Virus record (IMG/VR): IMGVR_UViG_3300034101_006325
Span: 136,304-200,303 of that record
DNA length: 64,000 nucleotides
From: a virus
Taxonomy: Duplodnaviria > Caudoviricetes
Strand: one strand, 5' to 3'
The position numbers were made by a program, and so were the translations under genes. Numbering within the stretch: the stretch's first letter is position 1; each line of letters opens with the position of its first letter. The notes under the pieces were generated by a model that ran no database searches, was not told the origin of the DNA, and saw only the letters and a list, made by a program, of their open reading frames with translations. Shown here in pieces: positions 18,693-36,281 of the stretch.

Positions 18693-19045
18693 AAAATATC
18701 CATGAGTCAATCAGTAATCTTTTGACTGTTAAATTAAATTCATACAAAGAAAAATCCCTTAATAAAGAAATTTGCATAAAAATATATCAGGATATATTTG
18801 ATTGTTTTGTCAATTTATTTCAAGAATCAAATATCAAAATTTCAAATGAATCAATGAATTTATTATCACAAATGTATTATGACGCTGTCAAGATTAATTC
18901 AACGCAGGATCTAGATCCAGGAATCTTTGATAAAAGAGCATCAATAAAAAATATTGAAACCAAAGAATTGGCTCTTTTAGCAACTATGTTAAATGGTACT
19001 GTTTTTTCTGAACCTATAATTTATGAGATAAAGAGGCGATCTTGA
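18689..19045 (+). CDS. Hypothetical protein
   Basis: Start refined to ATG 18689 (ATGA overlap with upstream stop). Confidence 0.6.
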   Translation: MKNIHESISNLLTVKLNSYKEKSLNKEICIKIYQDIFDCFVNLFQESNIKISNESMNLLSQMYYDAVKINSTQDLDPGIFDKRASIKNIETKELALLATMLNGTVFSEPIIYEIKRRS

Positions 19046-19890: not shown

Positions 19891-19904
19891 TTATATAAAA
19901 ATTC

Positions 19905-20519: not shown

Positions 20520-21421
20520 GAATAATGGTAACTGGGGGCAGAGGTTTTATTGGCAGCCATTTTGTGGAATTAGCTCTTCAAAATAATCATACAATTATTG
20601 ATGTTGATTTAATGACATATTGTTCAAATAGTTCTCTTCCGTGGGATAATCATGAAAATTACAAACATCTTAAACAAGACATTGTTGATATTAAGCATCT
20701 TCCCTTTTGTGATGTAGTTGTAAACTTTGCTGCAGAAACTCATGTTGATAATTCAATTACTTACTCTCTAGACTTTGCAAGAACTAATTTTAATGGAGTT
20801 CATAATCTTCTTAACCTCATTAGAGGAAAAGTTTATGAAAGGCCATATTTCGTCCAAATTAGCACGGATGAAGTTTATGGCGACATAAAAGAAGGAGAAT
20901 TTAATGAGTCAAGTCCTTTAAAACCCTCCAATCCATATAGCGCAACCAAAGCAGCTGCGGAACATTTAGTGACCAGTTACTCAAGAACATATGGCATCGA
21001 TTATCTCATTACAAGAAGTTCAAACAATTACGGACCTCGCCAGTATGAAGAAAAGCTGATATCTAAAACAATTAGCTGTTTAAAAGAAAATAGAAAAATT
21101 CCTCTTCATGGAGATGGGTCTTACCTTAGAGACTGGATTTATGTTAAGGATAATGCAAAAGCTATTCTTGAATTAGTTGAATCAAATATAAAAAATGAAA
21201 CTTTTAATATTTCTGGCGATCTTCACCTGAGTAACAAAGAAGTCGTAATGCAAGTATGCAATTGGCTTGGTATTTCTAACTGGGAAGATCGTGTTGTTTA
21301 CACTGAGAATAGGCTCGGGCAAGATTTAAGATATTCAATAACAAGTAATAAATTAAAAGAATTTGGAATTAGAATTCCTAAAAAAGAAAAATTGCACAAT
21401 TTTTTAGAGGATATTAAGTGA
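20516..21421 (+). CDS. rfbB: dTDP-glucose 4,6-dehydratase
   Basis: VTGGRGFIG, NFAAETHVDNS, QISTDEVYG, PYSATKA, SSNNYGPRQYEEKLI, RDWIYV. Confidence 0.92.
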   Translation: MRIMVTGGRGFIGSHFVELALQNNHTIIDVDLMTYCSNSSLPWDNHENYKHLKQDIVDIKHLPFCDVVVNFAAETHVDNSITYSLDFARTNFNGVHNLLNLIRGKVYERPYFVQISTDEVYGDIKEGEFNESSPLKPSNPYSATKAAAEHLVTSYSRTYGIDYLITRSSNNYGPRQYEEKLISKTISCLKENRKIPLHGDGSYLRDWIYVKDNAKAILELVESNIKNETFNISGDLHLSNKEVVMQVCNWLGISNWEDRVVYTENRLGQDLRYSITSNKLKEFGIRIPKKEKLHNFLEDIK

Positions 21422-22317
21422 GAAATTATTGCACTTTAGGAGATCACAGATACCTTCCACAGTTAATATGTCTGATCGATTCAATTATTGAAAATTTTAA
21501 TCATGAATATAAAATTCATGTATTGTGTCTTGATGATAAAGTTTTTAATTGCTTAGATAAGAAATACAAAAATATAAATCTGTATCCAATCAATAAGATT
21601 GAAGAAGATTTTAGCATTAAGGCTTTGAGATATCTTCCCGCAGGCCAAGAAGCAATTTCAAATGCTATGTCTTCCAATAAAGACCCGCAATTTGTTCAAT
21701 TTTGCTGGGCTTTAGCTCCATGCTTTACCGATTGGGTTATGCAACGAATAAAACAGTCTTGCACGTATGTCGATGCAGATCTTTTTTTCTTCAATGACAC
21801 AAGTCAATTTTTTAATGAATTAGGAAAAAAATCAATAGGATTGGTTAGACATAGAATCGATTACATCTATACTAGTGGAGAATTTAATGTAGGAATTGTG
21901 CATTTTGAGCATGATGGTCCCGGCAGATCTGCACTAAAATTTTGGTGTGATGCAATGAAAAATCCTAGAAATCAATACTCTCTAGGCTATGGAACTTGCG
22001 GTGATCAAAAATATCTCGAAGCAATTAATTCCATTTATAGAGATGATGTTTCTATTGTTGATAAAAATTTTGGTCATCTCGCACCTTGGAATATAACATT
22101 TCATAAGTACGAAAATGATAAAATTATATGGAACAACACGCAGCAGGACTTGGTGTACTTCCATTTTGCTCACTTTGTAGTTGAAGAAAATGGTTACAGA
22201 GGATCATATAAAAATGAATGGATATGGGGTGATCCTGTTAATCATGATTCTTATGTTAAAAAACTTTATGATCTTTATTATAAAAAAATGATTGAATCCA
22301 TCAAGGAGACTTTATGA
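21418..22317 (+). CDS. GT-A fold glycosyltransferase (GT8-like)
   Basis: YVDADLFFF (DxD), FNVG, DQKYL, HFAH; GTG start with overlap. Confidence 0.7.
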   Translation: MRNYCTLGDHRYLPQLICLIDSIIENFNHEYKIHVLCLDDKVFNCLDKKYKNINLYPINKIEEDFSIKALRYLPAGQEAISNAMSSNKDPQFVQFCWALAPCFTDWVMQRIKQSCTYVDADLFFFNDTSQFFNELGKKSIGLVRHRIDYIYTSGEFNVGIVHFEHDGPGRSALKFWCDAMKNPRNQYSLGYGTCGDQKYLEAINSIYRDDVSIVDKNFGHLAPWNITFHKYENDKIIWNNTQQDLVYFHFAHFVVEENGYRGSYKNEWIWGDPVNHDSYVKKLYDLYYKKMIESIKETL

Positions 22318-23195
22318 AAATTTCTGCAGCAATGATTGTTTTAAACGGTGACCATGTGTTGCAACAATCTTTAGCAAGTATTTATAATTTTGTTGATGAG
22401 ATTGTAATTGCAGAAGGTCCTGTTAAATTTTGGCAGTCTAAAGGGATCACAAAATCTACAGACAACACATTGGAAATAATAAAAAGCTTTCATGACCCTT
22501 CCAGAAAAATCAAATTAATTTCTTCTCAATATGAAGAAAAGAACGAGCAATTCACGGCAGCATTAAATTTATTGTCAAGTAATCCAAATTATCTTCTACA
22601 AGTCGATGCAGATGAGGTATGGACCGAAGAATCTTTAAAAAATCTTAAAAATTTATTACAAGATAGGCAACCAGTATCTGTAGGCATCCATTCAAATACT
22701 TTTGTTGGAGGATTTGACAGAGTCATCTCAGGCTTTGAAGAAAATACAGATAATTTTTTAAGAGTTTTTAAATGGGAAGATGAATGCAAATTTATAACAC
22801 ATCGACCGCCAACTATTAGATACAAAGATGGCAATCAAACAAGAGGTAAAAATCACATAGATTCAGACGAAGCAAGAGATTATTACAATATCTCAATGTG
22901 TCATTATTCTTATGTGTGGCCTTCTCAAGTCAAATCAAAAATAGAATATTACAAAGCTAAAGTCTCTATGCAAAATTGCATACCTGATTTTTATGAAAAT
23001 TACTGGCTCCCGTGGACTAAATCAACAACAATTGAAGAAAAATGGGAAATTGAAAAAAGAATAATGGGAATGCATGAATTTAGACCTGAAGTTAGAGGAC
23101 CAGCATTTACTAAAGAATTTAAAGGTACGCATCCAATACAAATTACCAACAATAAATTAAATTTATTAAATAGAATTAAGAAAGAAATAGAATAA
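22314..23195 (+). CDS. GT2-family glycosyltransferase
   Basis: ISAAMIVLN, VDEIVIAEG, STDNT, QVDADEVW, MCHYSYV. Confidence 0.75.
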   Translation: MKISAAMIVLNGDHVLQQSLASIYNFVDEIVIAEGPVKFWQSKGITKSTDNTLEIIKSFHDPSRKIKLISSQYEEKNEQFTAALNLLSSNPNYLLQVDADEVWTEESLKNLKNLLQDRQPVSVGIHSNTFVGGFDRVISGFEENTDNFLRVFKWEDECKFITHRPPTIRYKDGNQTRGKNHIDSDEARDYYNISMCHYSYVWPSQVKSKIEYYKAKVSMQNCIPDFYENYWLPWTKSTTIEEKWEIEKRIMGMHEFRPEVRGPAFTKEFKGTHPIQITNNKLNLLNRIKKEIE

Positions 23196-23936
23196 ATGGT
23201 TGCTTCATCTTATGCTATAGGAACAAATCCGTGGAATAGAGATGATATGATAAGTCATCTTAAAGAATTTTTAAATATTTATAAAAACAAACCAATAGAT
23301 GACAACAGTGGGGGACAAAAAGCTGCTCAACTTTTTTATTCATGGTATGTTGTAAAAAAAATTAAACCAAAAATTATTATTGAAAGCGGAGTATTTAAGG
23401 GACAAGGAACATGGGCATTTGAACAAGCTTCACCCGAATCTGAACTAATATGTTTAGATCCGTATTTGGAAAAATGGGGCGGTTATAGATCAAAAAAACC
23501 GCAATATCTTCAAAAAGATTTTAAAGAAATTAATTGGGACCACATTGAAGATAAATCTAATGTTTTGTGTTTTTTTGATGATCATCAAAATGCATTTAAT
23601 AGAATAGTTCAAATGAAACTTTTTGGTTTTAAAGTTGCAATGTTTGAAGATAACTACCCAGAAGGGCATGGAGACTGTTTATCTTTAAAGAAAATATTTG
23701 AAAATTCAGAGGCCTATCAAATATTGCCAGAATTAACATGCAAAGATTATCTTGAAAAAGTTGTAAAATGCTATCATGAACTTCCGCCTATTTGTTCTCT
23801 AGCAAAAACAAGATGGAATACTGAATGGAACGATTATCGTTCTAACAAACCCTTGCTTGAAGAATTAAATGATGAATTAGTTATTTTTCAAGATGAAATG
23901 GATCAGTATACTTGGATAAATTATGTTGAGTTATAA
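23196..23936 (+). CDS. Class I SAM-dependent methyltransferase-like protein
   Basis: IIIESGVFKGQGTW, ICLDP, FFDDH; found in a glycan cluster. Confidence 0.5.
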   Translation: MVASSYAIGTNPWNRDDMISHLKEFLNIYKNKPIDDNSGGQKAAQLFYSWYVVKKIKPKIIIESGVFKGQGTWAFEQASPESELICLDPYLEKWGGYRSKKPQYLQKDFKEINWDHIEDKSNVLCFFDDHQNAFNRIVQMKLFGFKVAMFEDNYPEGHGDCLSLKKIFENSEAYQILPELTCKDYLEKVVKCYHELPPICSLAKTRWNTEWNDYRSNKPLLEELNDELVIFQDEMDQYTWINYVEL

Positions 23937-23953
23937 TGTAAAGAGTTATTGCT

Positions 23954-24556
23954 ATGAGTTGGCAAGAGTCTGATAAAATTGTAGATCAAATGATCAGAGG
24001 ATCCAATGGATCTCTGTGGGGATTTAAATTAGAACAATCAAGTCATTTTCCTATTCTAGAAAAATTATTAAAAATCTCAGGACAAAAAGATCTACTTGTT
24101 GACATTGGATGTGGAGCAGGAGATGTTTCACGTTCTTGGAATGGAGATTATCTTGGAGTTGATTTAGACTGGGTTATAAAAAGAGTATCAAGAATTTGCA
24201 ATCCTAGTAAAACTTTTTTAAGTCTAGACATTACGTCTAAAGATACTTTTTATGATATTCCTAAATCTAATTGTTTGCTAATGAATGCATTTCTTGACGT
24301 TCAAGAAAATCCTTTAGAAGTTCTTGAAAAATTTTGTAGACAAGTTGATACAAACTGGATAATTGTTCATAGGCAAAGAATAAGGAATATTGAAAAAACA
24401 AAAATTGAATATGTTCCTGGCTACGGCGGTTCTTTAATACCTTCTTCTGTTATTTCTTTTAAAGAAATAAATGATATTAAACAAAAATATTCTAAAGAAT
24501 TTTTAATTGGATTGTGGGAAAATGATTGGTATTCATTTGCAATGAGAATCAAATAA
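23954..24556 (+). CDS. Class I SAM-dependent methyltransferase
   Basis: LVDIGCGAG, YLGVDL; stop overlaps the aminotransferase start (TAATG). Confidence 0.75.
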   Translation: MSWQESDKIVDQMIRGSNGSLWGFKLEQSSHFPILEKLLKISGQKDLLVDIGCGAGDVSRSWNGDYLGVDLDWVIKRVSRICNPSKTFLSLDITSKDTFYDIPKSNCLLMNAFLDVQENPLEVLEKFCRQVDTNWIIVHRQRIRNIEKTKIEYVPGYGGSLIPSSVISFKEINDIKQKYSKEFLIGLWENDWYSFAMRIK

Positions 24557-25617
24557 TGAAATTTGTAGATCTACAATTTGAAAATAAAAATGCAAAACTA
24601 TCATCAAAAAATAGTTTTAAACTTATTGAAAAAACTGGAAAGTATCTTCTTGGAGAATATTTAGAAAATTTTGAAAATCAATTTGCTAAGGATCAAGATA
24701 AAAAATATTGCATAGGCGTAAAAAATGCGACGGATGCGCTTGCAATATCATTTAAAGCTCTTGGATCAGAAAATAGAACCGTTATTATTCCTCAATTTGG
24801 TGCATATCCTACTGTGATGGCAGCGATTCAAGCTAATTCAAAAAATATAATAGCTGCTCCCGTAGATGAAACTTTATGTCTTAATCTCGAGGATGTTAAA
24901 ATACCAGATAATAGCATAATCGTTCCTGTCAATCTATTTGGAAATGAATCAAATTTAACTTACTTAAGAAAAAGAGCAGATGAAACAAATAGTCATATTG
25001 TAGAAGACTGTGCTCAATCAACAGGAATTCCTAATAATAATCTAAGTGATGTCTCTATTCATAGTTTTTATCCTACTAAACCGCTTGGTTGTCAAGGAGA
25101 TGGCGGGGCAATTCTCACGAATGATGAAAGAATTGCTAAATTCTGTAAACAAGCAAGATTTTATGGTCTTAATGATGGAATAATTGATTCCTGGGGTTTT
25201 AATAGTAGAATGGACGAGTGGCAATCCTGCTTTTTAACATCAAAACTATCATACTATAGAAATTTAAATGACACTAGAAAAGAAAATGCAAATTTATACA
25301 ATCAAATTCTAAATAAGAGCATTAGATACACAGAAAATTGCGTTTATCATCAGTATGTAAGTCTTTGGAAGGATAGAAAGTATATTCAAAAAAAATTATC
25401 AGAAAAAGGCATTCCTACGATGATTCATTACCCTAAAATGTTAATTGATATGCCATACCTTCGGGACAAAGTTAAATTTGTCAATGAGTGTCCAAGAGTT
25501 TCTGATTATATTCTGTCAATTCCAGTGGGGCCACATCTTACAAATCAAAATATTAAAAAAATAAAAAAAGAAATCAATAGCTTAAAGAGTAATTTAATTG
25601 ATTTTAAAGAAATTTAA
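24556..25617 (+). CDS. DegT/DnrJ/EryC1/StrS PLP-dependent sugar aminotransferase (FdtB-like)
   Basis: NATDAL, PVNLFG, VEDCAQS, SFYPTKPLGCQGDGGA (PLP Lys), NSRMDEWQ, VYHQY; start refined to MKFVDL. Confidence 0.9.
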   Translation: MKFVDLQFENKNAKLSSKNSFKLIEKTGKYLLGEYLENFENQFAKDQDKKYCIGVKNATDALAISFKALGSENRTVIIPQFGAYPTVMAAIQANSKNIIAAPVDETLCLNLEDVKIPDNSIIVPVNLFGNESNLTYLRKRADETNSHIVEDCAQSTGIPNNNLSDVSIHSFYPTKPLGCQGDGGAILTNDERIAKFCKQARFYGLNDGIIDSWGFNSRMDEWQSCFLTSKLSYYRNLNDTRKENANLYNQILNKSIRYTENCVYHQYVSLWKDRKYIQKKLSEKGIPTMIHYPKMLIDMPYLRDKVKFVNECPRVSDYILSIPVGPHLTNQNIKKIKKEINSLKSNLIDFKEI

Positions 25618-25656
25618 AATTTCTTTTTGACACTACGCTAAAAAGACTATCATAAA

Positions 25657-26622
25657 ATGAAAAAAGCATTTATCACAGGAATTACAGGACAAGACGGATC
25701 ATACTTGACAGAATTACTCCTTCAAAAAGGATATTCTGTAATTGGAATAAAAAGAAGAACTTCTGTATTAAATACTTCCAATATAGATCATCTATATGAA
25801 AATCCTAATCTTAAACTTTTTTATGGAAACATGAATGATGTTGGATCAATGTACCGATTGCTTTCAGAACATCAGCCCGATGAAGTTTACAATTTAGCAG
25901 CTCAATCACATGTAAGAACATCGTTCGATGTGCCAGAAGAAACAGTTGATGCAGTTGCAATGGGAACAATGAGATTATTAGAAGCTTGTAGGAATATTGT
26001 TCCAAAAGTCAAGTTTTATCAAGCTTCTTCTTCTGAAATGTTTGGAGATAATACTGAAGAATTAAAAAATGAAGACACGAGAATGTCTCCCGCATCACCT
26101 TACGCTGCCGCAAAACTTTTTTCACATAATTTAGTTAGAAATTACAGATTAGGTTATGGAATGCACGCATCGTCAGGAATTCTTTTTAATCATGAATCAC
26201 CACGGAGAGGTGAAACTTTTGTTACAAGAAAAATTACGAGAGCTGTTGCTAGAATAAAGCTTGGAAAACAAAATATTTTAAAACTTGGAAACATGGATTC
26301 ATATAGAGACTGGGGATTCGCTGGAGATTATGTCGAAGCTATGTGGCTTATGTTACAACAAGATACTCCTGATGATTATGTTATTGCTACGGGTGAAACA
26401 CGTACAGTCAGAGAATTTGTTGAAAAAACATTTGAATTGGCAGGTTTAGATTATAAAAAATATATTCAGATTGATCCTAGACTTTATCGACCCCACGAAG
26501 TACCTCATCTTCTAGGCGATGCTTCAAAAGCTAAAAAAATATTAGGATGGAAACCAAAACATACTTTTGATGATTTGATAAAATTAATGTATGAGTCAGA
26601 TCTAAAAAATGAACTTATTTAA
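25657..26622 (+). CDS. gmd: GDP-mannose 4,6-dehydratase
   Basis: AFITGITGQDGSYL, YNLAAQSHV, QASSSEMFG, SPYAAAK, LFNHESPRRG, RDWG. Confidence 0.95.
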   Translation: MKKAFITGITGQDGSYLTELLLQKGYSVIGIKRRTSVLNTSNIDHLYENPNLKLFYGNMNDVGSMYRLLSEHQPDEVYNLAAQSHVRTSFDVPEETVDAVAMGTMRLLEACRNIVPKVKFYQASSSEMFGDNTEELKNEDTRMSPASPYAAAKLFSHNLVRNYRLGYGMHASSGILFNHESPRRGETFVTRKITRAVARIKLGKQNILKLGNMDSYRDWGFAGDYVEAMWLMLQQDTPDDYVIATGETRTVREFVEKTFELAGLDYKKYIQIDPRLYRPHEVPHLLGDASKAKKILGWKPKHTFDDLIKLMYESDLKNELI

Positions 26623-26647
26623 TGAATAAATTTAAATACAGTAAACT

Positions 26648-27019
26648 ATGTTAAATTTTGATGATTATACACGTGCAATCGACGATAGAGGGAAATTATT
26701 TGCATTTAATAAATTGCAACAGTTTGATATAAAAAGAGTCTATTTAATAGAACCAGAAAAAAATATCTGGCGCGGAAAACACTTTCATAAAGAATGCACA
26801 CAAATAGTTCTAGTATTCAATGGAGAATTATTTTGCAAAGTCATTAATGAAAATACAAAAGAAGTGAATGAATTTGTGATGCCCGCAGGGACATCTTTTT
26901 GTCAGACTCCTGGTCTAGCTTTTTGTTTTAAAGCAAACTTAGAAGATACCAAAATCTTAGTTCTCTCTAATAGAGAATTTGATAAAAATGATTACTATGA
27001 GGTATCACTAGGTGTCTAG
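26648..27019 (+). CDS. fdtA: FdtA/QdtA-type cupin, dTDP-4-keto-6-deoxyhexose 3,4-ketoisomerase
   Basis: DDRGKL, IKRVYLI, RGKHFHK, LVLSNREFD.YY. Confidence 0.75.
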   Translation: MLNFDDYTRAIDDRGKLFAFNKLQQFDIKRVYLIEPEKNIWRGKHFHKECTQIVLVFNGELFCKVINENTKEVNEFVMPAGTSFCQTPGLAFCFKANLEDTKILVLSNREFDKNDYYEVSLGV

Positions 27020-27650
27020 CATCATAACAAACTCTTGGAATTCTTTTTCAGAAGAATATTCTAAAAATTATTTGAATGATGCTGATTCAGTACTTCCCAA
27101 GACTCTTTCAAATTTTATATTTAAAGAATTTAATACACCTAATTTAATCGATATAGGTTGCGGGAACGCTAGATTCTACAATTATTTGCTAAATGAAAAA
27201 AGAGATTTTAGCTATGAAGGTTTTGATATATCAGCCCCACTCATAAATGCAGCTAAAATTAAATATGAAAAAAATAAAAATTTTTATTGCAAACTAGTTG
27301 ATTCTAGTCTGTCTGATCTAAGACAAATAAATAAAAAATTTGATATAGCTGTATGCACACATCTTGTAGAACTTTGTGAATCGCCAGAAAATCTTTTTTA
27401 TACAATGACAAATTTGTCAGATACAGTCGCTGTAATATGGTATGAGTATCCAAGATTTGAATATACGCAGTTAGAAATTAGAAACTACGTAAGTCATGAC
27501 ATGCAAGAAAAAAAGATAATTACTCCTTATCTTAGAAATAGATATTCAAAATATTATTTGAAATTTTTAATGGATCGTTTCAGCCTTAAATCAATTCATA
27601 AAATTTCCATATCTGAAAAAGATGTTTTAGAAATTTATAAAAAAATATGA
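27012..27650 (+). CDS. Class I SAM-dependent methyltransferase
   Basis: LIDIGCGNA, YEGFDIS, FDIAVCTHLVE; GTG start overlapping fdtA. Confidence 0.8.
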   Translation: MSSIITNSWNSFSEEYSKNYLNDADSVLPKTLSNFIFKEFNTPNLIDIGCGNARFYNYLLNEKRDFSYEGFDISAPLINAAKIKYEKNKNFYCKLVDSSLSDLRQINKKFDIAVCTHLVELCESPENLFYTMTNLSDTVAVIWYEYPRFEYTQLEIRNYVSHDMQEKKIITPYLRNRYSKYYLKFLMDRFSLKSIHKISISEKDVLEIYKKI

Positions 27651-28225
27651 GAAAAGAAACGTTACAGATTATAAAAAATCTGAATAAAAATTTTAAAGGT
27701 GAATATGTTTATGATATGGGTGGCGGCTACAATCCCGTAACTTCTGACATTGTTGGAAATAAAAAAATAAAAGTAGTCGACTATTTTTCAGGGCCAAAAG
27801 TAGACATTATTGACGATCTAACAAAATTAAATTCGATAGAATCGAACTCTGTTGATAATATTTTTTGCTCTGATGCACTAGAACATGTAATTGAACCCTG
27901 GAATGCAATCAAACAATTTCATAGAGTTTTAAAAAATGATGGCATATTGTTTGTTACTGTTCCTTTTATTTGGCATTTTCATGGTCATGAAATTCAAAAA
28001 GAAAATTGGAAAAGTAGGGTTGATTTTTGGCGATTTACACCACAAGCACTAGAGTCTTTGTGTTTTAAGTATTTTGAAAAAATTGATTGCAATTGGGACT
28101 TGGAACCGCCTCTTGGTCCCCAAGAATTACCAATATGGCGTTGCGGCGTATATTACATGGGCAAAAAACTTTCAAGTATAAGAAAAGAAGATTATACACT
28201 AGAAATAACTAGAGACAATTGGTAA
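27647..28225 (+). CDS. Methyltransferase type 11-like
   Basis: YDMGGG, SVDNIFCSDALEHV, RVLKNDG, VPF.W..H, DFWRFT. Confidence 0.8.
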   Translation: MRKETLQIIKNLNKNFKGEYVYDMGGGYNPVTSDIVGNKKIKVVDYFSGPKVDIIDDLTKLNSIESNSVDNIFCSDALEHVIEPWNAIKQFHRVLKNDGILFVTVPFIWHFHGHEIQKENWKSRVDFWRFTPQALESLCFKYFEKIDCNWDLEPPLGPQELPIWRCGVYYMGKKLSSIRKEDYTLEITRDNW

Positions 28226-29295
28226 ACATGGCTTGTATTATTAAAATACCTGACGAAAACTCAAAAGGTGTCGTTACATTCACCACACAAGAAAGAGACA
28301 AATTAATTTTTAATGATAAAGCAATTTTTGAAAAAATTGTTACTTTAAAAAAAGATTATATAGTTGGTCTTCATCACAATTGGCATGATTACAACTTTAG
28401 ATATCATCCTTTGTTTGATTTTAGTATGGCTGGGGAGGGAGATCTTGGCAATTCGGAAGTTCCTCTTATAACTTTAGATGCATGCAATTTCATTCCAGAA
28501 GAATTTCATTCATCGACAGGAGAAAAATTTTGGGATGTAGTCTATGTTACACGTGCTGTCTATTTTAAAAGAGTCGATCTTTTCTTCAAGGCTATAAAGA
28601 AAATTTATGACACAGGTAAAAAAATAAAAGTATTACTTGTTTGTTGCATCCCTCCAGAAGATGCAACTCCTAAAAATGTTATTGAAGACTATCTTTCAAC
28701 TTTTAACGAAGAAGAAAGAAAATATTTTACTTTTCTACCATTAACACATGATTATCCTTTTTGTCTAGATCCGGCATCAATAGGATTTTTTTATAGATCC
28801 TCAAAGATATTTGCCCACTTTGCTAATGATGAAAGAAGATGCAGAGTAGTAGCAAATGCCGCTGCAACATGCATGCCAATAGTTTGTATGTCTGACCCTG
28901 CTTCAATTATTCCAGAACATTTAAAAAAGCCACCATACTGTTATATTGTTAAAAGTGATGATGATTTTTCAAATAAAATTATTCAATCACTTAATGAATA
29001 TGATGAAAATAAAAATTTATTTGAATTATCAAAACATTTTAGTGTAAAACATACAAAACAAGAACTTAAACAACAATTAGAAAAATTTTTAAAAATTTCA
29101 AAAGATAAAATGTTAGATTCTTCTTTTAATTTTTTTAATCTTGACATTAGACTTGGAAGACATCACAGCATCAGCTACGGACCAAATAAAGTCAATATGT
29201 CTTTAGATGAATTTTCTAAAATATTGCTTGATAAACAAAATTTAAGTTTAATATGGGATTCTTCTTGTAAAGATTTTGAAAAGAAAATTTCATGA
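28219..29295 (+). CDS. Glycosyltransferase, GT4-like
   Basis: WDVVYVTR...KRVDLF, YRSSKIF, RVVANAAATCMPIV; start may be 28228. Confidence 0.6.
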   Translation: MVNMACIIKIPDENSKGVVTFTTQERDKLIFNDKAIFEKIVTLKKDYIVGLHHNWHDYNFRYHPLFDFSMAGEGDLGNSEVPLITLDACNFIPEEFHSSTGEKFWDVVYVTRAVYFKRVDLFFKAIKKIYDTGKKIKVLLVCCIPPEDATPKNVIEDYLSTFNEEERKYFTFLPLTHDYPFCLDPASIGFFYRSSKIFAHFANDERRCRVVANAAATCMPIVCMSDPASIIPEHLKKPPYCYIVKSDDDFSNKIIQSLNEYDENKNLFELSKHFSVKHTKQELKQQLEKFLKISKDKMLDSSFNFFNLDIRLGRHHSISYGPNKVNMSLDEFSKILLDKQNLSLIWDSSCKDFEKKIS

Positions 29296-29363
29296 ATCAA
29301 AATCATTTTGATCCAAATTAAAATGGGACAATTGTTTGTTAATTCCTATAAGTAAGAAATTAT

Positions 29364-30059
29364 ATGCATAATATTCATTTAAATTCAATTAATGAAAAAG
29401 GTTATGCATTAATTCCTAATTTTTTAGGAAGCAATGAAGTCAAAAATTTAAAAAATAGCTTATTCAAAATATACAGCAACTATAGATTAGGTGATCAGAT
29501 AGAAATACCCGGAATGTCTACGCCTAAGCAATATAGTACTGGAAAATCCATGAGAATTTATCCTCCTGCATATTGTAATTTTTCTGAAATTGAAAATTTT
29601 AAGAAAGATTGGCTCACACAACTTACTGATGCTTTTTTTGAAGGAGCAAATAATAAAGGACTTCAAGTATTTTCTTCATATGAAACATTGTCTTACAGAG
29701 AAGTCAACGAATTACCTAGAAATTCTCACATGCACGTAGATCCATATCATTCTCTTAAATTTTTTAGTTATTTGACTGATACAACCAAAGAGAATGGCGC
29801 ACTTCAATTAATTCCGGGTACAAGCTGGATTGGCAAAAAAATAAGAAAAGAAAACAGCATTAATGAACTATTGACCAGCGATTTATATACCTTTAAAAAA
29901 AGCAATTATTATAATTCTGATCTTGAAAAAGAAACTACTTTTATCGAAGGTAAAGCTGGCGATCTAATAATTCTAGATACAGATACTGTGCATTGTGGGG
30001 GTATTCTTGTAAAGCCAGGGCTAGAAAGACTTACAATAATCTATCACAATAGGAAATAG
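29364..30059 (+). CDS. Phytanoyl-CoA dioxygenase-like 2OG-Fe(II) oxygenase
   Basis: EKGYALIPNFL, HVD, YLTDTTKENGALQLIPGT, AGDLIILDTDTVHCG, distal Arg. Confidence 0.85.
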   Translation: MHNIHLNSINEKGYALIPNFLGSNEVKNLKNSLFKIYSNYRLGDQIEIPGMSTPKQYSTGKSMRIYPPAYCNFSEIENFKKDWLTQLTDAFFEGANNKGLQVFSSYETLSYREVNELPRNSHMHVDPYHSLKFFSYLTDTTKENGALQLIPGTSWIGKKIRKENSINELLTSDLYTFKKSNYYNSDLEKETTFIEGKAGDLIILDTDTVHCGGILVKPGLERLTIIYHNRK

Positions 30060-30060
30060 T

Positions 30061-30660
30061 ATGAAAACTTGTGCCATTGTAGGAAATTCTTCTTGTTTAT
30101 TGGATAAAAGTTATGGAAGTTTTATCGATAGTCATGATGAAGTTATAAGATTTAACATGGCACGAACAAGAGGATTTAAAAAATATGTTGGAACAAAAAC
30201 GACAATAAGATTTTGTAATCAACACATTGTTATGTCCAATTTTTCAGACGATTATTTAAAAGAACAGCTTAAAGTCTTTCCAGAATGGGACAATAAAGAA
30301 ATTCTAACGTGGGAAAAACAAAAATTATTTTTTAAATATAGCAAAGAGCTTAAAGGAACAGAGCTTGAATCTCAGTTGTTTTCTAAAAACAATGAGATTT
30401 ACTACATAAGTGATTTAGAAATAATAAAATTAAAAAGAAAATTAAATGTAGAACCTACAATGGGGTTAGTGGGATTAGATTATGCTTTGACATTTTTTAG
30501 TACAATAAATTGCTTTGGTTTTGATTTTTATAAAAATCAAAACAGATCTTTTCATTATTTTGAAAAAACAATACCTTATAAATCTTGCCATGATCATAAA
30601 GAAGAAAAGAAATTCTTCAAAGATGCTGAAGAATCAGGAAAGATAAAAATTTATAGATGA
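30061..30660 (+). CDS. GT29-family sialyltransferase-like protein
   Basis: Sialylmotif L (CAIVGNSSCLLDKSYGSFIDSHDEVIRFNMA...VGTKTT), S-like (PTMG...INCFGFDF), III (HYFE), VS-like (HDHKEE). Confidence 0.85.
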   Translation: MKTCAIVGNSSCLLDKSYGSFIDSHDEVIRFNMARTRGFKKYVGTKTTIRFCNQHIVMSNFSDDYLKEQLKVFPEWDNKEILTWEKQKLFFKYSKELKGTELESQLFSKNNEIYYISDLEIIKLKRKLNVEPTMGLVGLDYALTFFSTINCFGFDFYKNQNRSFHYFEKTIPYKSCHDHKEEKKFFKDAEESGKIKIYR

Positions 30661-31283
30661 AAATATTGATTCCTGCACGAATGGGATCCAAAGGATTCCC
30701 TAAAAAAAATAGAATTTTATTTGATTATACTGCTAGAATTATTCCTAAAGATTTCATTAAAAATACAGTAGTTTCGACAGATGACCCTGAAATTGTCAAA
30801 ATGGCTGAATCTTATAATTTCTTAGTTCATCATCGATCAGAAGAATTATCAAGAGATGAAACTTCTACAAAAGAAGTAGTTGAATCTTTTTTAAAACAAG
30901 AAATTATTGATGATAATTCAAAGTTAACAGCGCTTTTATATTTGACTTATCCGCAAAGAAAATGGGATGATGTTGTCAGAGCAAAAGAATTGATTGATAG
31001 CTCTAAATCAAAATCTTTGCTATGTGCATTTGACATCGAGGCACATCCATTTTTAATGGCATTTGAAATGCCAGGTCATAGAGGAAAACAATTATATAAA
31101 CACAATTTATATAGAAGACAGGATTATCCTAAATGTTTTGAAATATCACATTTTGTATGTATGTTTTATGACGATGAAGTAAAAAATTTAAATAATAATC
31201 TCTATAATGAAGACACATATTTTATGAAATGTAATAAAAAGGTAGATGTTGATCTACTAGAACATTTTTTAAAAATACAATGA
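30657..31283 (+). CDS. neuA: CMP-nonulosonate (acylneuraminate) cytidylyltransferase
   Basis: IPARMGSKGFPKKN, VSTDD, R.EELSRDETS, LTYPQR, RRQD, DVD. Confidence 0.88.
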   Translation: MKILIPARMGSKGFPKKNRILFDYTARIIPKDFIKNTVVSTDDPEIVKMAESYNFLVHHRSEELSRDETSTKEVVESFLKQEIIDDNSKLTALLYLTYPQRKWDDVVRAKELIDSSKSKSLLCAFDIEAHPFLMAFEMPGHRGKQLYKHNLYRRQDYPKCFEISHFVCMFYDDEVKNLNNNLYNEDTYFMKCNKKVDVDLLEHFLKIQ

Positions 31284-32098
31284 AAAAAATTAAAATTATT
31301 GCAGAAATTGGAATAAATCACAACGGCAGTGTTGAGTTGGCAAAAAAGATCATTGCAGTGTCTGCAGCAGCAGGCTGTGATTATGTTAAATTTCAAAAAA
31401 GAAACCCAGATGTATGTGTACCAGAAGATCAAAAATTAAAAGTTAGGTCTACTCCGTGGGGAGAAATGACGTACATTGACTATAAGAAAAAAATTGAATT
31501 TGAAAAAGAACAATATGATGAAATTGACAAATTTTGCAAACAATTAGGCATTAAATGGTTTGCGTCTGCGTGGGATTTATCTTCTCTTGATTTTTTAAAA
31601 AGATATTCAGATGTTGTAAAGATTCCATCAGCACTTATTACAAATGAAGAACTTTTATTGAATGCAAGAAAAAAATTTGATTTTCTTTTAATATCAACTG
31701 GCATGAGTACTGAGTCTGAGGTAGAAAATGCAGTTAAAATTTCAAATCCCGATGTAATTTTTCATACTAACTCAAGTTATCCTAGCAAAGTTGAAGATTT
31801 AAATTTAAACTACATAAAACATCTAAAAAATAAGTTTAATAGAACGGTGGGTTATAGTGGACATGAATTTGGACTTGTTACAACATTTGCAACTGTACCT
31901 TTGGGTGTCGAATGGATAGAAAGACATGTCACTTTAGATAGAGAAATGTGGGGATCTGATCAAAAATCATCTGTAGAACCATCGGGTATTTACAAGCTTG
32001 TCAAAGGAATACGGGATATAGAAAAATCATTAGGAAGTATTGGGCCAAGAGTAATTTGTAAAGAAGAATTAGAAAAGAAAAAATCACTTAGAGGTTGA
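31280..32098 (+). CDS. neuB: Nonulosonic acid synthase (NeuB/NANS family), short form without C-terminal antifreeze-like domain
   Basis: IAEIGINHNG, VKFQKR, FASAWD, KIPSA, ISTGMS, GYSGHE, IERHVTLD, GSDQ; 272 aa. Confidence 0.92.
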   Translation: MKKIKIIAEIGINHNGSVELAKKIIAVSAAAGCDYVKFQKRNPDVCVPEDQKLKVRSTPWGEMTYIDYKKKIEFEKEQYDEIDKFCKQLGIKWFASAWDLSSLDFLKRYSDVVKIPSALITNEELLLNARKKFDFLLISTGMSTESEVENAVKISNPDVIFHTNSSYPSKVEDLNLNYIKHLKNKFNRTVGYSGHEFGLVTTFATVPLGVEWIERHVTLDREMWGSDQKSSVEPSGIYKLVKGIRDIEKSLGSIGPRVICKEELEKKKSLRG

Positions 32099-32406
32099 AT
32101 GTGTTAATTTACGTAGATATTGATGAAACAATCTGCAATACGCCTGACGATAGAAACTATTTAAAGTCTACACCCATAAAAAAAAATATAAAAATTATAA
32201 ATTCTCTTCATGAAAAAGGCCATCAAATTGTTTATTGGACTGCAAGAGGAACAGTCACAGGAATTGATTGGTCAAATGAAACTATTAGACAGTTAGACGA
32301 ATGGGGTGTCAAAAGAACAAAAGTTCTTTTTGGAAAGCCAGCATATGATTTATTCATATGCGACAAAGCGATTAATTCAAATGTTTTTTTTAATTTAACT
32401 CAATAA
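32095..32406 (+). CDS. HAD-superfamily phosphatase (capsule-biosynthesis type)
   Basis: YVDIDETIC (DxDxT), WTARG, GKPAYD..ICDKA; TTG start overlapping neuB stop. Confidence 0.8.
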   Translation: MNVLIYVDIDETICNTPDDRNYLKSTPIKKNIKIINSLHEKGHQIVYWTARGTVTGIDWSNETIRQLDEWGVKRTKVLFGKPAYDLFICDKAINSNVFFNLTQ

Positions 32407-32419
32407 GGCATATTAATTT

Positions 32420-32926
32420 ATGATCAAACTTTTACCGATGATGCAATTGGAAGAGCTAAATCTTCTCGAAAAATATCTTGATAAAGAAAAAGTGATTTGC
32501 GAATACGGCTCAGGCGGTTCTACAAATTGGCTTTCAGAAAGAACCAAATTTGTATATTCAATAGAACACAACAAAGAGTGGTATGATAAAACAAAAAGTA
32601 GTTTGTCAAATAGAGAAAATGTAGAAATTTTTTATGTCCCAAGTTTTAATTGGGACCCAAGCACCGAAGGAAATATTGATAGTTTTGAAAACTACATTAA
32701 TATGCCAGGAACTTTAAATATAGATTTTTCTTTCTTTTTAGTGGATGGCAGAGCTAGAGTTGACTGTTGCAGGTTTATATCAAAAAAATTTCCAACAGCT
32801 ATTATTGCTTTTCATGACTATACCAATAGAGCAAATGATGTTGAGCACAATTATTCAAGAGTCTTAGAACATTTAACTTTAATTGAAACCTGTAAAACTC
32901 TTGCAATTTTTAAAAAGAAAGTCTAA
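32420..32926 (+). CDS. Class I SAM-dependent methyltransferase-like protein
   Basis: ICEYGSGGST, SIEHNKEW, LVDGRAR, FHDY. Confidence 0.7.
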   Translation: MIKLLPMMQLEELNLLEKYLDKEKVICEYGSGGSTNWLSERTKFVYSIEHNKEWYDKTKSSLSNRENVEIFYVPSFNWDPSTEGNIDSFENYINMPGTLNIDFSFFLVDGRARVDCCRFISKKFPTAIIAFHDYTNRANDVEHNYSRVLEHLTLIETCKTLAIFKKKV

Positions 32927-32946
32927 ATAAAATAAAAATTATTCTA

Positions 32947-32976
32947 ATGAACTAAGAGACACAACCATCTTATATT
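32947..32976 (+). promoter_or_regulatory. Candidate promoter ATGAAC-N18-TATATT
   Basis: Intergenic, 18-bp spacing as in the putative phage class, weaker -35 match. Confidence 0.3.
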
Positions 32977-32983
32977 TGAGTCA

Positions 32984-33799
32984 ATGGAATCAAATCTGTC
33001 ATTAGAAACTTTACCTACAGGAAAACCTCATGTTTCATTTTCTGAGGTAAAGTTATGGAAAGAATGTTCTTTTAGACATCATCTTGTTCATGTCAAAAAA
33101 ATTGATTTATCTAAGCCCTCGCCCGTTTTAGATTTTGGCACAGCTGTTCATGCTTCTTGTGAAAAATATCTTTTGACAAGAGAGATGGACTACCAAGTAG
33201 CTTTTAAACATTTGGACGATGCCTGGAAAAAACATGAAGGAATTGTAGAATTCAATGCTTTGTCATTGGAAAAAGCAAAGCAAGAAGCTACACAAATTCT
33301 TTTAGAAGTGCCTGCTTTTCTCGACAAAGAATTTCCAGGATGGGAAGTCGTTGATGCTGAACATCAGCTTTATGAAGCAGTTGAAGGCCATCCTCACGCT
33401 TTCAAAGGATTCATCGACGGAGTTATAAAAGCCAAAGGGAAAAGAGGTGAGACAATCTATTGGATTCTGGATTGGAAGACAACGATTAGAGGCTGGCTTA
33501 GAGAAAAAAGATCTGATGAAATGGTTAAGTCACAATTGGCACTCTATAAAAACTACTGGTGTCAAAAAAATCCTGAAATTCAATTTAAAGATGTCAGATG
33601 CGGTTTCGTCCTTTTAAAAAAATCTGCAAAACCAGGAGAACATTGTGAACTTTTTTCTGTTTCACTTGGAGAAGTTCCTATTAAAAGGTCTTTAAAGGTC
33701 GTTAGCAATATGCTTACTTCTGTAAAGAGAGGTATTGCTTTGAAAAATAGAGACTCTTGTACTTATTGTGAATACAAAAATACCAATCATTGCACATAA
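32984..33799 (+). CDS. PD-(D/E)XK nuclease, Cas4/RecB-like with Fe-S Cys
   Basis: KGFIDG, LDWKT, QLALY; one N-terminal Cys (KEC) plus C-terminal CTYCEYKNTNHC. Confidence 0.85.
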   Translation: MESNLSLETLPTGKPHVSFSEVKLWKECSFRHHLVHVKKIDLSKPSPVLDFGTAVHASCEKYLLTREMDYQVAFKHLDDAWKKHEGIVEFNALSLEKAKQEATQILLEVPAFLDKEFPGWEVVDAEHQLYEAVEGHPHAFKGFIDGVIKAKGKRGETIYWILDWKTTIRGWLREKRSDEMVKSQLALYKNYWCQKNPEIQFKDVRCGFVLLKKSAKPGEHCELFSVSLGEVPIKRSLKVVSNMLTSVKRGIALKNRDSCTYCEYKNTNHCT

Positions 33800-33825
33800 T
33801 TTATTTTTGATAGCATTAATTTTTA

Positions 33826-33855
33826 TTACAACTTTTAAAAAGTTGGTAATATAAC
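33826..33855 (+). promoter_or_regulatory. Candidate promoter TTACAA-N18-TATAAC with near-palindromic spacer
   Basis: ATTACAACTTTTAAAAAGTTGGTAAT is an imperfect inverted repeat; lies upstream of the GT4 pair. Confidence 0.4.
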
Positions 33856-33859
33856 GTGG

Positions 33860-35107
33860 ATGAAGAAAAAAACGATTTTAATGCTATCAGATCATCCTTT
33901 GTCTACTTCAGGCGTAGGCACACAGGCAAGATGGTTAATAACAGGTTTAATCAACACTGGTAAATATAGTTTTAGATGTTTTGGTGGTGCTGTTAGACAC
34001 GATAACTACGATCTTAACGTAGTAAGTCCTGATTTTGTCATTAAACCGACAAATGGTTTTGGTGATAGAAATCTTTTAAGAAAAACTCTAGCACAATTAA
34101 AACCCGACGCTCTTCTTCTCTTTACGGATCCAAGATTTTTTATTTGGACTTGGGAAATGGAGGATGAGATTCACCAAGTCTGTCCTATTGCTTATTGGCA
34201 CTTATGGGATAATGGACCTTGGCCGGAATTTAATAGGGCACTATACGCGTCCAATGATTTGATCAATTGCATTAATTATCCGACCTATGAGATGGTCAAA
34301 GAACGTTTTCCAGATAGGACAAATTATATTCCACATGCTGTCCCAAAGGATCTTTACTATCCTTTACCTGACGAAGAGGTAAAAAACTTTAAAAGAAATC
34401 TTTTAGGCAAAGATAAAGAAGATCATTTTGTTGTGGGATATGTTAGTAGAAATGCCCGTCGAAAAATGCCAAGTGACATTATTGTTTCTTGGAAAATGTT
34501 TATTGATGAGCTAAAGAAAAAGCATGGGCACACAAAAGCCAGTCTTGTCATGCATACAGAGCCTTTAGATCCGGAAGGACCTAACTTACATCATGTATTA
34601 GATTCATTGGACGCGAAAGATCATGTTGTTTTTTCTAATAAACGTGTAAATTTTCAAGAAATGAATGTGATATACAACATATTCGATACAATCGTTAATA
34701 GAAGCTCTAATGAAGGTTTTGGACTTCCTACACTAGAAACAATGATGTGTGGCAAACCAATTATTGCAATAAAGACAGGCGGTTTAACGAGACAAGTCGA
34801 AGATCCTGATACGGGTTTTCAACACGGCATAGCGTTGGAACCTGAAATAAAGTCTTTGGTGGGAAACCAAATGGTTCCTTACATTTATGAAGATTTCATA
34901 AGCCACAAAACTTTGGCAGATGCATTTATGAAAATGTACGAAATGGGTCCTGAAAAAAGAAAAGAACTTGGACAAAAAGCAATGCAGCATGCGCACAAAA
35001 ATTACAATATTGACAATATGATAAAAGATTGGGATTCTTCTTTGACCAAATTAATTGACAATTGGCAAGAAGGCAAAAACAAGAGATGGACGCACGAGGA
35101 GATTTGA
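33860..35107 (+). CDS. GT4-family glycosyltransferase
   Basis: SDHP...SGVGTQ, YIPHAV, SRNARRK, NEGFGLPTLETMMCGKPII. Confidence 0.88.
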   Translation: MKKKTILMLSDHPLSTSGVGTQARWLITGLINTGKYSFRCFGGAVRHDNYDLNVVSPDFVIKPTNGFGDRNLLRKTLAQLKPDALLLFTDPRFFIWTWEMEDEIHQVCPIAYWHLWDNGPWPEFNRALYASNDLINCINYPTYEMVKERFPDRTNYIPHAVPKDLYYPLPDEEVKNFKRNLLGKDKEDHFVVGYVSRNARRKMPSDIIVSWKMFIDELKKKHGHTKASLVMHTEPLDPEGPNLHHVLDSLDAKDHVVFSNKRVNFQEMNVIYNIFDTIVNRSSNEGFGLPTLETMMCGKPIIAIKTGGLTRQVEDPDTGFQHGIALEPEIKSLVGNQMVPYIYEDFISHKTLADAFMKMYEMGPEKRKELGQKAMQHAHKNYNIDNMIKDWDSSLTKLIDNWQEGKNKRWTHEEI

Positions 35108-35108
35108 A

Positions 35109-36281
35109 ATGAAAAAAGCAATTCTTAGAGGACCTTCTCTCACACAATCCGGTTATGGCGTTCATTGTAGACAAGTTGCATCTTGGCTCTTGTCAAAAAA
35201 AGATTGGGATGTCAAATTCCAAGCTCTGCCATGGGGAGATACCCCGTGGTTATTAAATGAAAAATCAAATGATGGTTTGATTGATAGAATTATGAAGAAT
35301 ACTGTGGACCTATCTGACAGTAATTCTAATTATGACATCTCCTTTCAATTACAGCTTCCTAATGAATGGGATCACAAACTTGCAAAATACAATGTTGGAA
35401 TGACTGCAGGAATTGAAACTGATATTTGCAATCCTGTGTGGATAGACTGCTGTAATAAAATGGATTTAGTCATAGTTCCTTCAAAGCACGCAGAAAATTC
35501 ATTAAAAAATTCAGGAAAAATTAACACACCAATTCAAATAGTACCAGAATCGTTTTGCAATGAAATTTTAGACGAAACAAGCACAGATCTTTTGAAAAAT
35601 TTCCCTACATTTAGCACAAATACTAATTTTCTGGTATTTGGACAGATTACAGGGGACAATCCCATGAATGATAGAAAGAATATTTTCTTCACTATTAAAT
35701 GGTTTTGTGAAGTCTTCAAAGATGATCCTGATGTAGGTCTTGTAATAAAGACAAATATCGGTAGAAATACTCAGATTGATAAAAAGAAAACGTTAGAATT
35801 GATGTCAATCATTGTAAAAGAATGCAGAAAAAGTCAATTTCCTAAAATTCATATTATTCATGGTGACATGACAGACAAAGAAGTTGCTGCGTTATACAAG
35901 CATCCTCAGATTAATGGATTTATTTCCCTAACAAGAGGAGAGGGATATGGCCTACCCCTGTTGGAAGCAGCAGCTAGCGGGCTACCAGTTATTGCCACAG
36001 GTTGGTCGGGACATATGGACTTTTTATCCCGAGGAAAGTTTATTGAAATAGACCACGATGTGAAAAAAATACATGCATCAAGAGCAGACAATAAACTATT
36101 CATGCCTGAAGCAAAATGGGCTGAAGCAAATGAAGATGACTTCAAGAAAAAAATCGTAAAATTTAAAAATTCTCAAGCAAAACCCAAAGAATGGGCAAAA
36201 GAATTAGAATTAATCATTAAAGAAAATTATAGTCAGGAATCAATTTTTAAATACTATGACAAAGTAGTTGAAAATATATGA
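35109..36281 (+). CDS. GT4-family glycosyltransferase
   Basis: SGYGVHCR, IVPSKH, RKNI, RGEGYGLPLLEAAASGLPVIATGWSGH; start refined to MKKAIL. Confidence 0.88.
   Translation: MKKAILRGPSLTQSGYGVHCRQVASWLLSKKDWDVKFQALPWGDTPWLLNEKSNDGLIDRIMKNTVDLSDSNSNYDISFQLQLPNEWDHKLAKYNVGMTAGIETDICNPVWIDCCNKMDLVIVPSKHAENSLKNSGKINTPIQIVPESFCNEILDETSTDLLKNFPTFSTNTNFLVFGQITGDNPMNDRKNIFFTIKWFCEVFKDDPDVGLVIKTNIGRNTQIDKKKTLELMSIIVKECRKSQFPKIHIIHGDMTDKEVAALYKHPQINGFISLTRGEGYGLPLLEAAASGLPVIATGWSGHMDFLSRGKFIEIDHDVKKIHASRADNKLFMPEAKWAEANEDDFKKKIVKFKNSQAKPKEWAKELELIIKENYSQESIFKYYDKVVENI

Follow-up and report, generated by a model that had tools for sequence, protein, structure and literature searches.

The locus consists of five tightly packed genes, encoding a PhyH-family dioxygenase, a sialyltransferase-like protein of family GT29, a CMP-nonulosonate synthetase, a NeuB-family synthase and a small HAD phosphatase, which lie in a much larger glycan island (Table 1). 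The window, by which we mean the whole 64,000-nucleotide stretch of DNA that was analysed, corresponds to bases 136304-200303 of a 200,303-bp IMG/VR virus record whose completeness is estimated at 61%, and it also carries baseplate hub and wedge genes, a phage-type helicase gene and a sigma gene. The source is an uncultured freshwater jumbo phage. The closest database phages for the baseplate and helicase proteins, among them the 484-kb "huge phage" LR756508.1, share only ~30% identity with it, and an INPHARED megablast search with the structural region gave no match. Lake-water metagenomes of several studies, as well as one viral-fraction metagenome, contain the window stretch at 99-100% identity, and no RNA dataset is among the sources listed for it. 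Metagenome reads over the stretch contain too few variants for a selection test; two of them fall inside the GT29 gene (one synonymous, one K86N). Two short-sided read joints end at position 32181.

Table 1. Features of the GT29 locus, with positions counted from the first nucleotide of the window.
Feature	Position	Strand	Remarks
Glycan island	16776..36281	+	24 same-strand genes, 19.5 kb; abuts baseplate genes
PhyH-family Fe(II)/2-oxoglutarate dioxygenase	29364..30059	+	H124-x-D...H210 triad intact
GT29 (sialyltransferase-like) gene	30061..30660	+	ATG to TGA, 199 aa, without TM segment or stem
Sialylmotif L	30070..30219	+	residues 4-53, CAIVGNS...IDSHDEVIRFN...TTIRFCN; aligned to ST6Gal1 and ST3Gal1
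Sialylmotif S	30454..30522	+	residues 132-154, PTMG...NCFGF; aligned to ST6Gal1 and ST3Gal1
Sialylmotif III	30553..30564	+	H165-Y-F-E168, aligned to HYWE of ST3Gal1
Sialylmotif VS	30589..30606	+	H177-D-H-K-E-E182 (H-x4-E form), aligned to VS of ST3Gal1
CMP-nonulosonate synthetase (CTP_transf_3)	30657..31283	+	42.5 bits; best PDB match CMP-Neu5Ac synthetase 6ifd, E 9e-14
NeuB-family nonulosonate synthase	31280..32098	+	272 aa, 220.7 bits, without C-terminal SAF domain
Small cap-less HAD phosphatase	32095..32406	+	DIDET (DxDxT) motif, ~100 aa, 1xpj/9iqw family

The first-pass annotation had described the product of the GT29 gene as a minimal, soluble, eukaryote-type sialyltransferase of this family with motifs L, S-like, III (HYFE) and VS-like (HDHKEE), and it had suggested the Pfam Glyco_transf_29 profile as a check. 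The reading frame has no overlapping ORF of 50 or more aa, and its product matches PF00777 (Glyco_transf_29) with an E value of 3.5e-27 and 95.9 bits (cut-off 23) over profile positions 55-270 of 272; in a search of the whole record the score was 94.1 bits. A Pfam scan of the protein at E values up to 0.1 returned nothing besides PF00777, and PHROGs and NCBIfam contained no family matching it. When the protein was compared with PDB sequences by phmmer, GT29 enzymes were the only hits (ST6Gal1, 1.5e-10; ST3Gal1, 6e-10; ST6GalNAc2; ST8Sia3), and a profile built from 67 short homologues matched ST3Gal1 with an E value of 8e-36, placing the histidines of motifs III and VS in register. The family assignment and all four motifs were therefore borne out, both by PF00777 and by the alignments to ST6Gal1 and ST3Gal1.

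Motif III is defined as (H/y)-Y-(Y/W/F/h)-(D/E/q/g) and motif VS as H-x4-E (PMC8433944). In close relatives of the phage protein, H165, Y166, E168, H177 and E182 are all invariant, as are G8, N9, S10, D23, H25, D26, R30, N32, G44, T47 and R50 of motif L. All 67 short homologues retain H165 and E182, while H177 and Y166 each reach a conservation of at least 90%; the catalytic and donor-binding residues are invariant in relatives down to ~30% identity. By analogy with solved GT29 enzymes, motif L would be the region that binds the CMP-sugar donor, and H177 of motif VS is the presumed catalytic base; GT29 enzymes are metal-independent and inverting, use a histidine base, and have motif VS implicated in catalysis (PMC8433944).

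The phage protein begins at motif L, with only three residues preceding it, and its highest 19-residue Kyte-Doolittle mean is 1.28, in the S-motif helix, indicating that it has no membrane segment. The earlier proposal of a protein with neither a transmembrane anchor nor a stem thus held up, as did the proposal that the S-motif cysteine is shifted and that the disulfide between motifs L and S may be absent. The canonical S-motif cysteine of ST6Gal1 aligns with F146, and C151 is found in the next strand, five residues downstream. Two close relatives have Ala or Ile in place of the L-motif cysteine, C4; because of this replacement, together with the loss of the canonical S-motif cysteine, the L-S disulfide is not conserved.

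An AlphaFold2 model built with 67 homologues has a mean pLDDT of 96.4, a pTM of 0.92 and seven strands. In a Foldseek search of the PDB, the 30 best matches were mammalian GT29 chains, followed by the GT42 enzymes CstI and CstII. VIA-align superimposed the model on residues 142-341 of pig ST3Gal-I (2WNB) with a Z score of 17.6 and an rmsd of 2.2 Å over 169 aligned residues, and across GT29 structures Z ranged from 15.5 to 17.6 at 20-27% identity. Comparison of a predicted structure with mammalian GT29 enzymes, which had been put forward as a second check, therefore returned the expected fold: the modelled protein is a GT-A variant 2 enzyme with a core made of a seven-stranded parallel sheet, of the GT29 type. 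Since residues 1-199 of the model align with 142-341 of ST3Gal-I, the phage protein is equivalent to the GT29 core, starting at motif L and ending at the C-terminus.

The GT42 enzymes CstI and CstII of Campylobacter jejuni are CMP-sialic acid transferases, soluble or peripheral, whose GT-A-like fold is related and whose base is likewise a histidine. They match the model less well than GT29 enzymes do (Z about 10.5 and rmsd ~3.9 Å, compared with 17.6 and 2.2 Å), and Pfam gives PF00777 only; membership of GT42 was ruled out on these grounds.

With the mammalian Golgi enzymes (pig ST3Gal-I 2WNB and human ST6GalNAc-II, ST8Sia-III and ST6Gal-I) the phage protein shares the GT-A variant 2 core, motifs L, S, III and VS, and the VS histidine. 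Unlike them, it has no cytoplasmic tail, transmembrane segment or stem, and it also lacks the ~80-95 catalytic-domain residues that precede motif L in those enzymes. Neither of the features by which eukaryotic Golgi GT29 enzymes are recognised, an L-S disulfide and a type II topology with a stem, was found in the phage protein, which is presumably cytoplasmic and unglycosylated. GT29 folds are also encoded by viruses of eukaryotes (poxvirus, herpesvirus and the Mimiviridae member ChoanoV1), but the pox- and herpesvirus proteins are vertebrate-like and 300-400 aa long, compared with 199 aa for the phage protein.

Relatives of the phage protein are numerous. An exhaustive phmmer search found 3560 representatives at E values of at most 1e-3 and 325 at or below 1e-10, and the best 150 of these are mostly 190-260 aa long and anchor-free. 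Seven metagenome homologues with 43-70% identity are all 198-204 aa long. The nearest ESM Atlas clusters, one of which has 473 members, consist of proteins of ~200 aa and are 78-100% Uroviricota. The small size that the first-pass annotation had singled out is therefore ordinary for this group. ESM Atlas also contains GT29 domains fused to a methyltransferase or to GT8. The best match in BFVD is an unnamed viral protein of 222 aa (TM 0.91, 36% identity), and in UniProt the automatic annotation already assigns GT29 to some proteins of "uncultured Caudovirales phage". Relatives were retrieved from at least 126 IMG/VR contigs with only two peptide patterns, taken from a broader alignment (patterns drawn from the close clade were too specific and retrieved no relative). 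In bacterial genomes, relatives occur at 63 loci in diverse taxa, including cultured Halomonas, Rhodovulum, Rhizobium, Ensifer and Helicobacter. A PhyH-GT29 pair, with 36% identity in GT29, is present on a contig of a Bdellovibrionales MAG (L009) on which only glycan genes are found.

These numbers contradict the premise, on which the earlier annotation had relied, that GT29 is the animal and plant family, and bacterial members had in fact been described. Petit et al. (2018, Sci Rep 8:2946; PMC5811610) reported 23 bacterial GT29 sequences that contain all four motifs and have neither a TM domain nor the L/S cysteines; from a sampling that did not include viruses they argued that eukaryotic GT29 came from bacteria, and they noted that the function of bacterial GT29 proteins is not predictable from GT29 phylogeny. 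The phage protein has the same combination of four sialylmotifs, no TM domain and no L/S disulfide cysteines, and by sequence it is a member of an anchor-less prokaryotic and phage branch of GT29, the bacterial part of which was thus already known (PMC5811610). It differs in that it is phage-encoded, in that it falls in a viral clade apart from the main bacterial-genome clade, and in that it starts at motif L, whereas many bacterial copies have 130-250 extra N-terminal residues or are multidomain proteins. Our search of the literature on phage or viral GT29 and on phage NeuB found no relevant paper.

The phylogeny with prokaryotic and viral sequences that had been proposed was carried out as two unrooted trees, one computed with FastTree from 187 domains and the other with IQ-TREE (LG+C20 PMSF, quick search) from 140. 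The window protein fell in a clade of 12 sequences (SH-aLRT 99), the others being P0011, two IMG/VR relatives (L087 and L088) and eight metagenome homologues from the window clade; 30 of the 44 bacterial-genome sequences group in a clade of their own (support 93). The contigs of P0011 and P0016 are too short to tell phage from bacterium. In both trees, plant and green-algal GT29 proteins (Calypogeia, Mesostigma) adjoin the huge-phage copies; no other eukaryotic sequences in the trees lie nearer to the viral groups. Because support for the deep branches of both trees is 76-88 and the trees are unrooted, we conclude only that the GT29 gene, as placed by these alignments, is part of a viral radiation and is not a recent eukaryotic acquisition. 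Within the prokaryotic world, the viral clade may be the group most closely related to plant and algal GT29. "Eukaryote-type" was therefore misleading as a label, because relatives are common in bacteria and phages and the gene itself lies in a viral clade.

The genes around the GT29 gene suggest what its product might do. A single nucleotide separates the PhyH stop codon from the ATG of GT29, and the remaining junctions are ATGA or TTGA overlaps: the CMP synthetase start overlaps the GT29 stop codon (ATGA), the NeuB start overlaps the CMP synthetase stop (ATGA), and the HAD gene overlaps the NeuB stop. Packed stop to start in this way, the five genes are, judging from these junctions, almost certainly co-translated. 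A NeuB/NeuA-type donor pathway, composed of a NeuB-family synthase and a CMP-nonulosonate synthetase, is thus encoded directly beside the GT29 gene. The PhyH protein, which weakly resembles the small-molecule hydroxylases DhiD and EctD, is probably a tailoring hydroxylase. The HAD enzyme, whose best solved relative is 9iqw and whose small-HAD family also includes 1xpj, is presumed to be a sugar-phosphate (nonulosonate-9-phosphate) phosphatase.

The arrangement is conserved. Independent contigs with a 50%-identical GT29 have the same arrangement of PhyH, GT29, (HAD), CMP synthetase and NeuB, and in these assemblies of 50-66 kb the synteny extends via a PD-(D/E)XK gene and two GT4 genes into structural genes. 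Four more distant IMG/VR relatives (L087, L088, L090 and L096; 35-39% identity) retain GT29, CMP synthetase, NeuB and PhyH in other orders, and PhyH accompanies GT29 both in these four and in L002-L009. Among 50 viral GT29 clusters, dereplicated at 80% identity, homologues of the CMP synthetase were found within 6 kb in 21, of NeuB in 13, of HAD in 11, and of NeuB and HAD together in 9; the corresponding numbers for 58 bacterial clusters were 10 for the CMP synthetase, 6 for NeuB and 0 for HAD. HAD is therefore present beside NeuB in 9 of the 13 NeuB-bearing viral clusters, while the NeuB-HAD pairing, and with it the linkage of GT29 to that pair, occurs in none of the bacterial clusters. In LR756508.1, five GT29-domain genes lie beside NeuB, HAD, Gmd and CMP synthetase genes.

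Sialic acids can be made by way of 9-phosphate intermediates, as they are in animals by NANS and NANP and in Bacteroides by a Kdn-9-phosphate synthase, a HAD phosphatase and a CMP-Kdn synthetase. The phage cassette has a corresponding trio of synthase, putative HAD phosphatase and CMP synthetase, and it differs from these pathways in that its NeuB is without a SAF domain and its HAD enzyme is a protein of only ~100 aa of the 1xpj/9iqw family. No NeuC-type UDP-GlcNAc 2-epimerase (PF02350, Epimerase_2) was matched in the 200,303-bp record, although control genomes gave matches; since the record is only 61% complete, this absence is weak evidence. Three points speak for a 9-phosphate route, which would give a Kdn-like (or Neu5Ac) product: the NeuB-HAD pairing is tight and phage-specific, no NeuC-type epimerase was found in the record, and mannose-6-phosphate, PEP and CTP would suffice. 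Caution is needed on the product, because NeuB reaches neither the Neu5Ac synthase nor the PseI equivalog cut-off of NCBIfam, and in PDB comparisons PseI is as near as any NeuB structure. It is needed on the route as well, because the HAD relatives with solved structures have different sugar phosphates as substrates. A Kdn-like sugar made via a 9-phosphate is therefore a tentative assignment, at somewhat below even odds.

From family, fold, motif conservation, gene coupling and conservation of the cassette, we infer that the GT29 protein is an active CMP-nonulosonate transferase of the cytoplasm, inverting and metal-independent, and that it caps a glycan built by the phage, a reading to which we assign a probability of about 0.7. 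Its neighbours in the operon would make the donor inside the infected cell: the short NeuB would condense PEP with a hexose (or hexose phosphate), the small HAD enzyme would take off the terminal phosphate, and the CMP synthetase would activate the nonulosonate product, with the PhyH dioxygenase probably hydroxylating either the sugar or its acceptor. By analogy with characterised GT29 enzymes, the transferase would bind the CMP-activated nine-carbon 2-keto-3-deoxy acid via motifs L, S and III, His177 of motif VS would act as the general base that activates the acceptor hydroxyl, and the sugar would be transferred with inversion and without a metal. The glycan itself would be put together by the other soluble transferases encoded in the 19.5-kb island, and the sugar added by GT29 would form its acidic cap. 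We know of no enzyme assay of a prokaryotic or phage GT29 protein.

What the cap is attached to is a separate question, and the composition of the island bears on it. The island encodes GT1, GT2 and GT4 transferases (the GT4 proteins being MshA-like), Gmd, an RmlB-like SDR, a DegT aminotransferase, an FdtA-like cupin and several methyltransferases. No transmembrane segment was predicted in any of its 24 proteins, none of which has a hydropathy window of 1.6 or more, and family-profile searches of the island recognised no priming phospho-glycosyltransferase, flippase or polymerase. Because the island is entirely soluble and lies beside baseplate genes, cytoplasmic glycosylation of virion proteins would fit, and a virion protein is a possible acceptor, if one that we propose with some doubt. 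The fuller scenario, in which the phage sialylates its own particle, with the soluble island building a capsid or tail glycan in the host cytoplasm and the disulfide-free GT29 enzyme capping it with a Kdn-like acid made from mannose-6-phosphate by NeuB, HAD and CMP synthetase, is speculative.

Alternatively, the same activity could be directed at the host envelope, adding the sugar to an LPS, capsule or S-layer glycan or to lipid-linked intermediates, for example to block superinfection. Bacterial GT29 genes occur in glycan clusters together with Gmd, DegT and GT1 genes, and the cytoplasmic transferases of O-antigen and capsule synthesis are likewise soluble, so the missing transmembrane segments are compatible with such a target. 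However, the lack of a predicted membrane segment in all 24 island proteins and of a recognisable priming phospho-glycosyltransferase, flippase or polymerase argues in the other direction, as does the position of the island against baseplate and structural genes in a conserved synteny. Neither point is decisive, and we consider a host-envelope target rather unlikely but a serious alternative.

A second alternative concerns the donor, which, in place of a nonulosonate, could be a 2-keto-3-deoxy acid of eight carbons or another acid of this class, such as Kdo or Dha. For plant GT29 proteins, the suspected donors are of the Kdo or Dha type and not sialic acid, and the plant and green-algal sequences of Calypogeia and Mesostigma are, as described above, those nearest to the viral groups among eukaryotes. 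Moreover, GT29 phylogeny does not predict function (PMC5811610). The co-translated synthase, however, belongs with its 220.7 bits to the NeuB family and not to KdsA, and the CMP synthetase matches CMP-Neu5Ac synthetases (E 9e-14) far better than it matches KdsB of NCBIfam (E 3e-4). A Kdo- or Dha-type donor is therefore improbable, and these neighbours are instead consistent with transfer of a nonulosonate.

It has also to be considered that the island, including GT29, could decorate phage DNA, building on a modified pyrimidine a glycan that ends in an acidic sugar cap. The small-HAD family to which the phage enzyme belongs includes the arabinose-bisphosphate phosphatase of the phage 5-hydroxycytosine arabinosylation pathway, a DNA modification, and GT4 MshA-like transferases such as those used in that pathway are present in the island. 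Nevertheless, the paper on 5-hydroxycytosine arabinosylation reports no nonulosonate on DNA, and the HAD gene studied here is coupled to NeuB and not to a kinase or a uridylyltransferase, making DNA a very improbable target. Equally improbable is that the locus encodes no working phage enzyme, whether because what is left of GT29 is decayed or lectin-like or because bacterial DNA was wrongly joined to a phage contig: GC content is indeed uneven (30-34% in the window compared with 40-50% over much of the remaining record, and 26.5% in the GT29 gene), but every catalytic motif residue is conserved across deep divergence, independently assembled contigs of 50-66 kb show the same order of genes across the island and on into the structural genes, the baseplate, helicase and sigma genes share the low-GC window, and the stretch is present in a viral-fraction metagenome.

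A transferase that caps a phage-built glycan with a nonulosonate would be of interest in several respects. Animal sialyltransferases are hard to produce in bacteria, because they depend on disulfides, on glycosylation and on the Golgi environment. A natural GT29 protein of 199 residues that has no cysteine bridge and is presumably active in the bacterial cytoplasm would be a minimal model of the catalytic core and a possible biocatalyst. Widespread freshwater jumbo phages have a full set of genes for the synthesis, activation and transfer of a sialic-acid-like sugar, which suggests that particles or infected cells are decorated with an acidic sugar; if the particles themselves are sialylated, this would be the first tailed phage with a nonulosonate coat and the first minimal GT29 enzyme open to assay. 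Finally, the existence of a large viral clade of GT29 proteins bears on the source of the eukaryotic members of the family.

The NeuB encoded in the window has no C-terminal SAF/antifreeze-like domain, and this short, SAF-less form resembles PDB 6ncs (290 aa), which was deposited as a sialic acid synthetase. In the PDB, the small HAD phosphatase comes closest to a "Capsule biosynthesis protein" (9iqw, E 5e-9) and to 1xpj, members of a small-HAD family that takes in AfhF, RB69 gp51 and DLP3 gp81, the sugar phosphatases with which phages carry out 5-hydroxycytosine arabinosylation (PMC13326640).

The ORF that follows the HAD gene has no match in Pfam or NCBIfam and is not kept in related cassettes, which hold a UDP-glucose dehydrogenase or epimerase gene in its place. 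Contigs from two different lake metagenomes contain joints that leave the GT29 (sialyltransferase-like) gene and re-enter the window inside the HAD gene; the sides of these joints are short (21 letters in the one reported) and their likeness is 85%, and they could be artefactual or could reflect related phages that carry a variant form of the cassette.

Features of the window and of the huge phage LR756508.1
Feature	Position	Product or extent
PhyH-type Fe/2OG dioxygenase	29364-30059	
GT29	30061-30660 (+)	199 aa
NeuB	31280-32098	272 aa
HAD phosphatase	32095-32406	roughly 100 aa
ORF after HAD gene	32420-32926	168 aa
Metagenome joints, exit	30339/30432	
Metagenome joints, re-entry	32181	
GT29-domain genes of LR756508.1	309194-326809	five genes (loci L072-L080)

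GC content is very uneven along the whole 200,303-bp record: it is ~30-34% over the greater part of the window and beyond about 125 kb, but much of the record's first 120 kb lies at 40-50% (49% at 65-90 kb, for instance). Either the jumbo phage is strongly mosaic or the record contains a mis-join.

Among ESM Atlas and representative matches, other phage GT29 domains are joined to methyltransferase or GT8 domains or are preceded by ~190-aa N-terminal extensions; the 396-aa representative P0010 is one of these fused or extended proteins. In the published, unannotated 484-kb "huge phage" LR756508.1, four of the five GT29-domain genes are near-tandem, the genes adjoin NeuB, small HAD, Gmd and CMP synthetase, and one match contains an in-frame TAG. 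In both trees, which are unrooted, the plant and green-algal GT29 sequences of Calypogeia fissa and Mesostigma viride cluster with huge-phage and IMG/VR sequences, apart from the main bacterial-genome clade (with weak support, 80-86).

In the subclade containing the window sequence, a PhyH-type dioxygenase accompanies GT29, NeuB and CMP synthetase, in varying gene order (loci L002-L009 and the IMG/VR relatives L087, L088, L090 and L096). The ESM Atlas clusters nearest to the window PhyH are 70-100% viral. We know of no precedent for a PhyH-type hydroxylase that tailors nonulosonates; the window PhyH may be such an enzyme.
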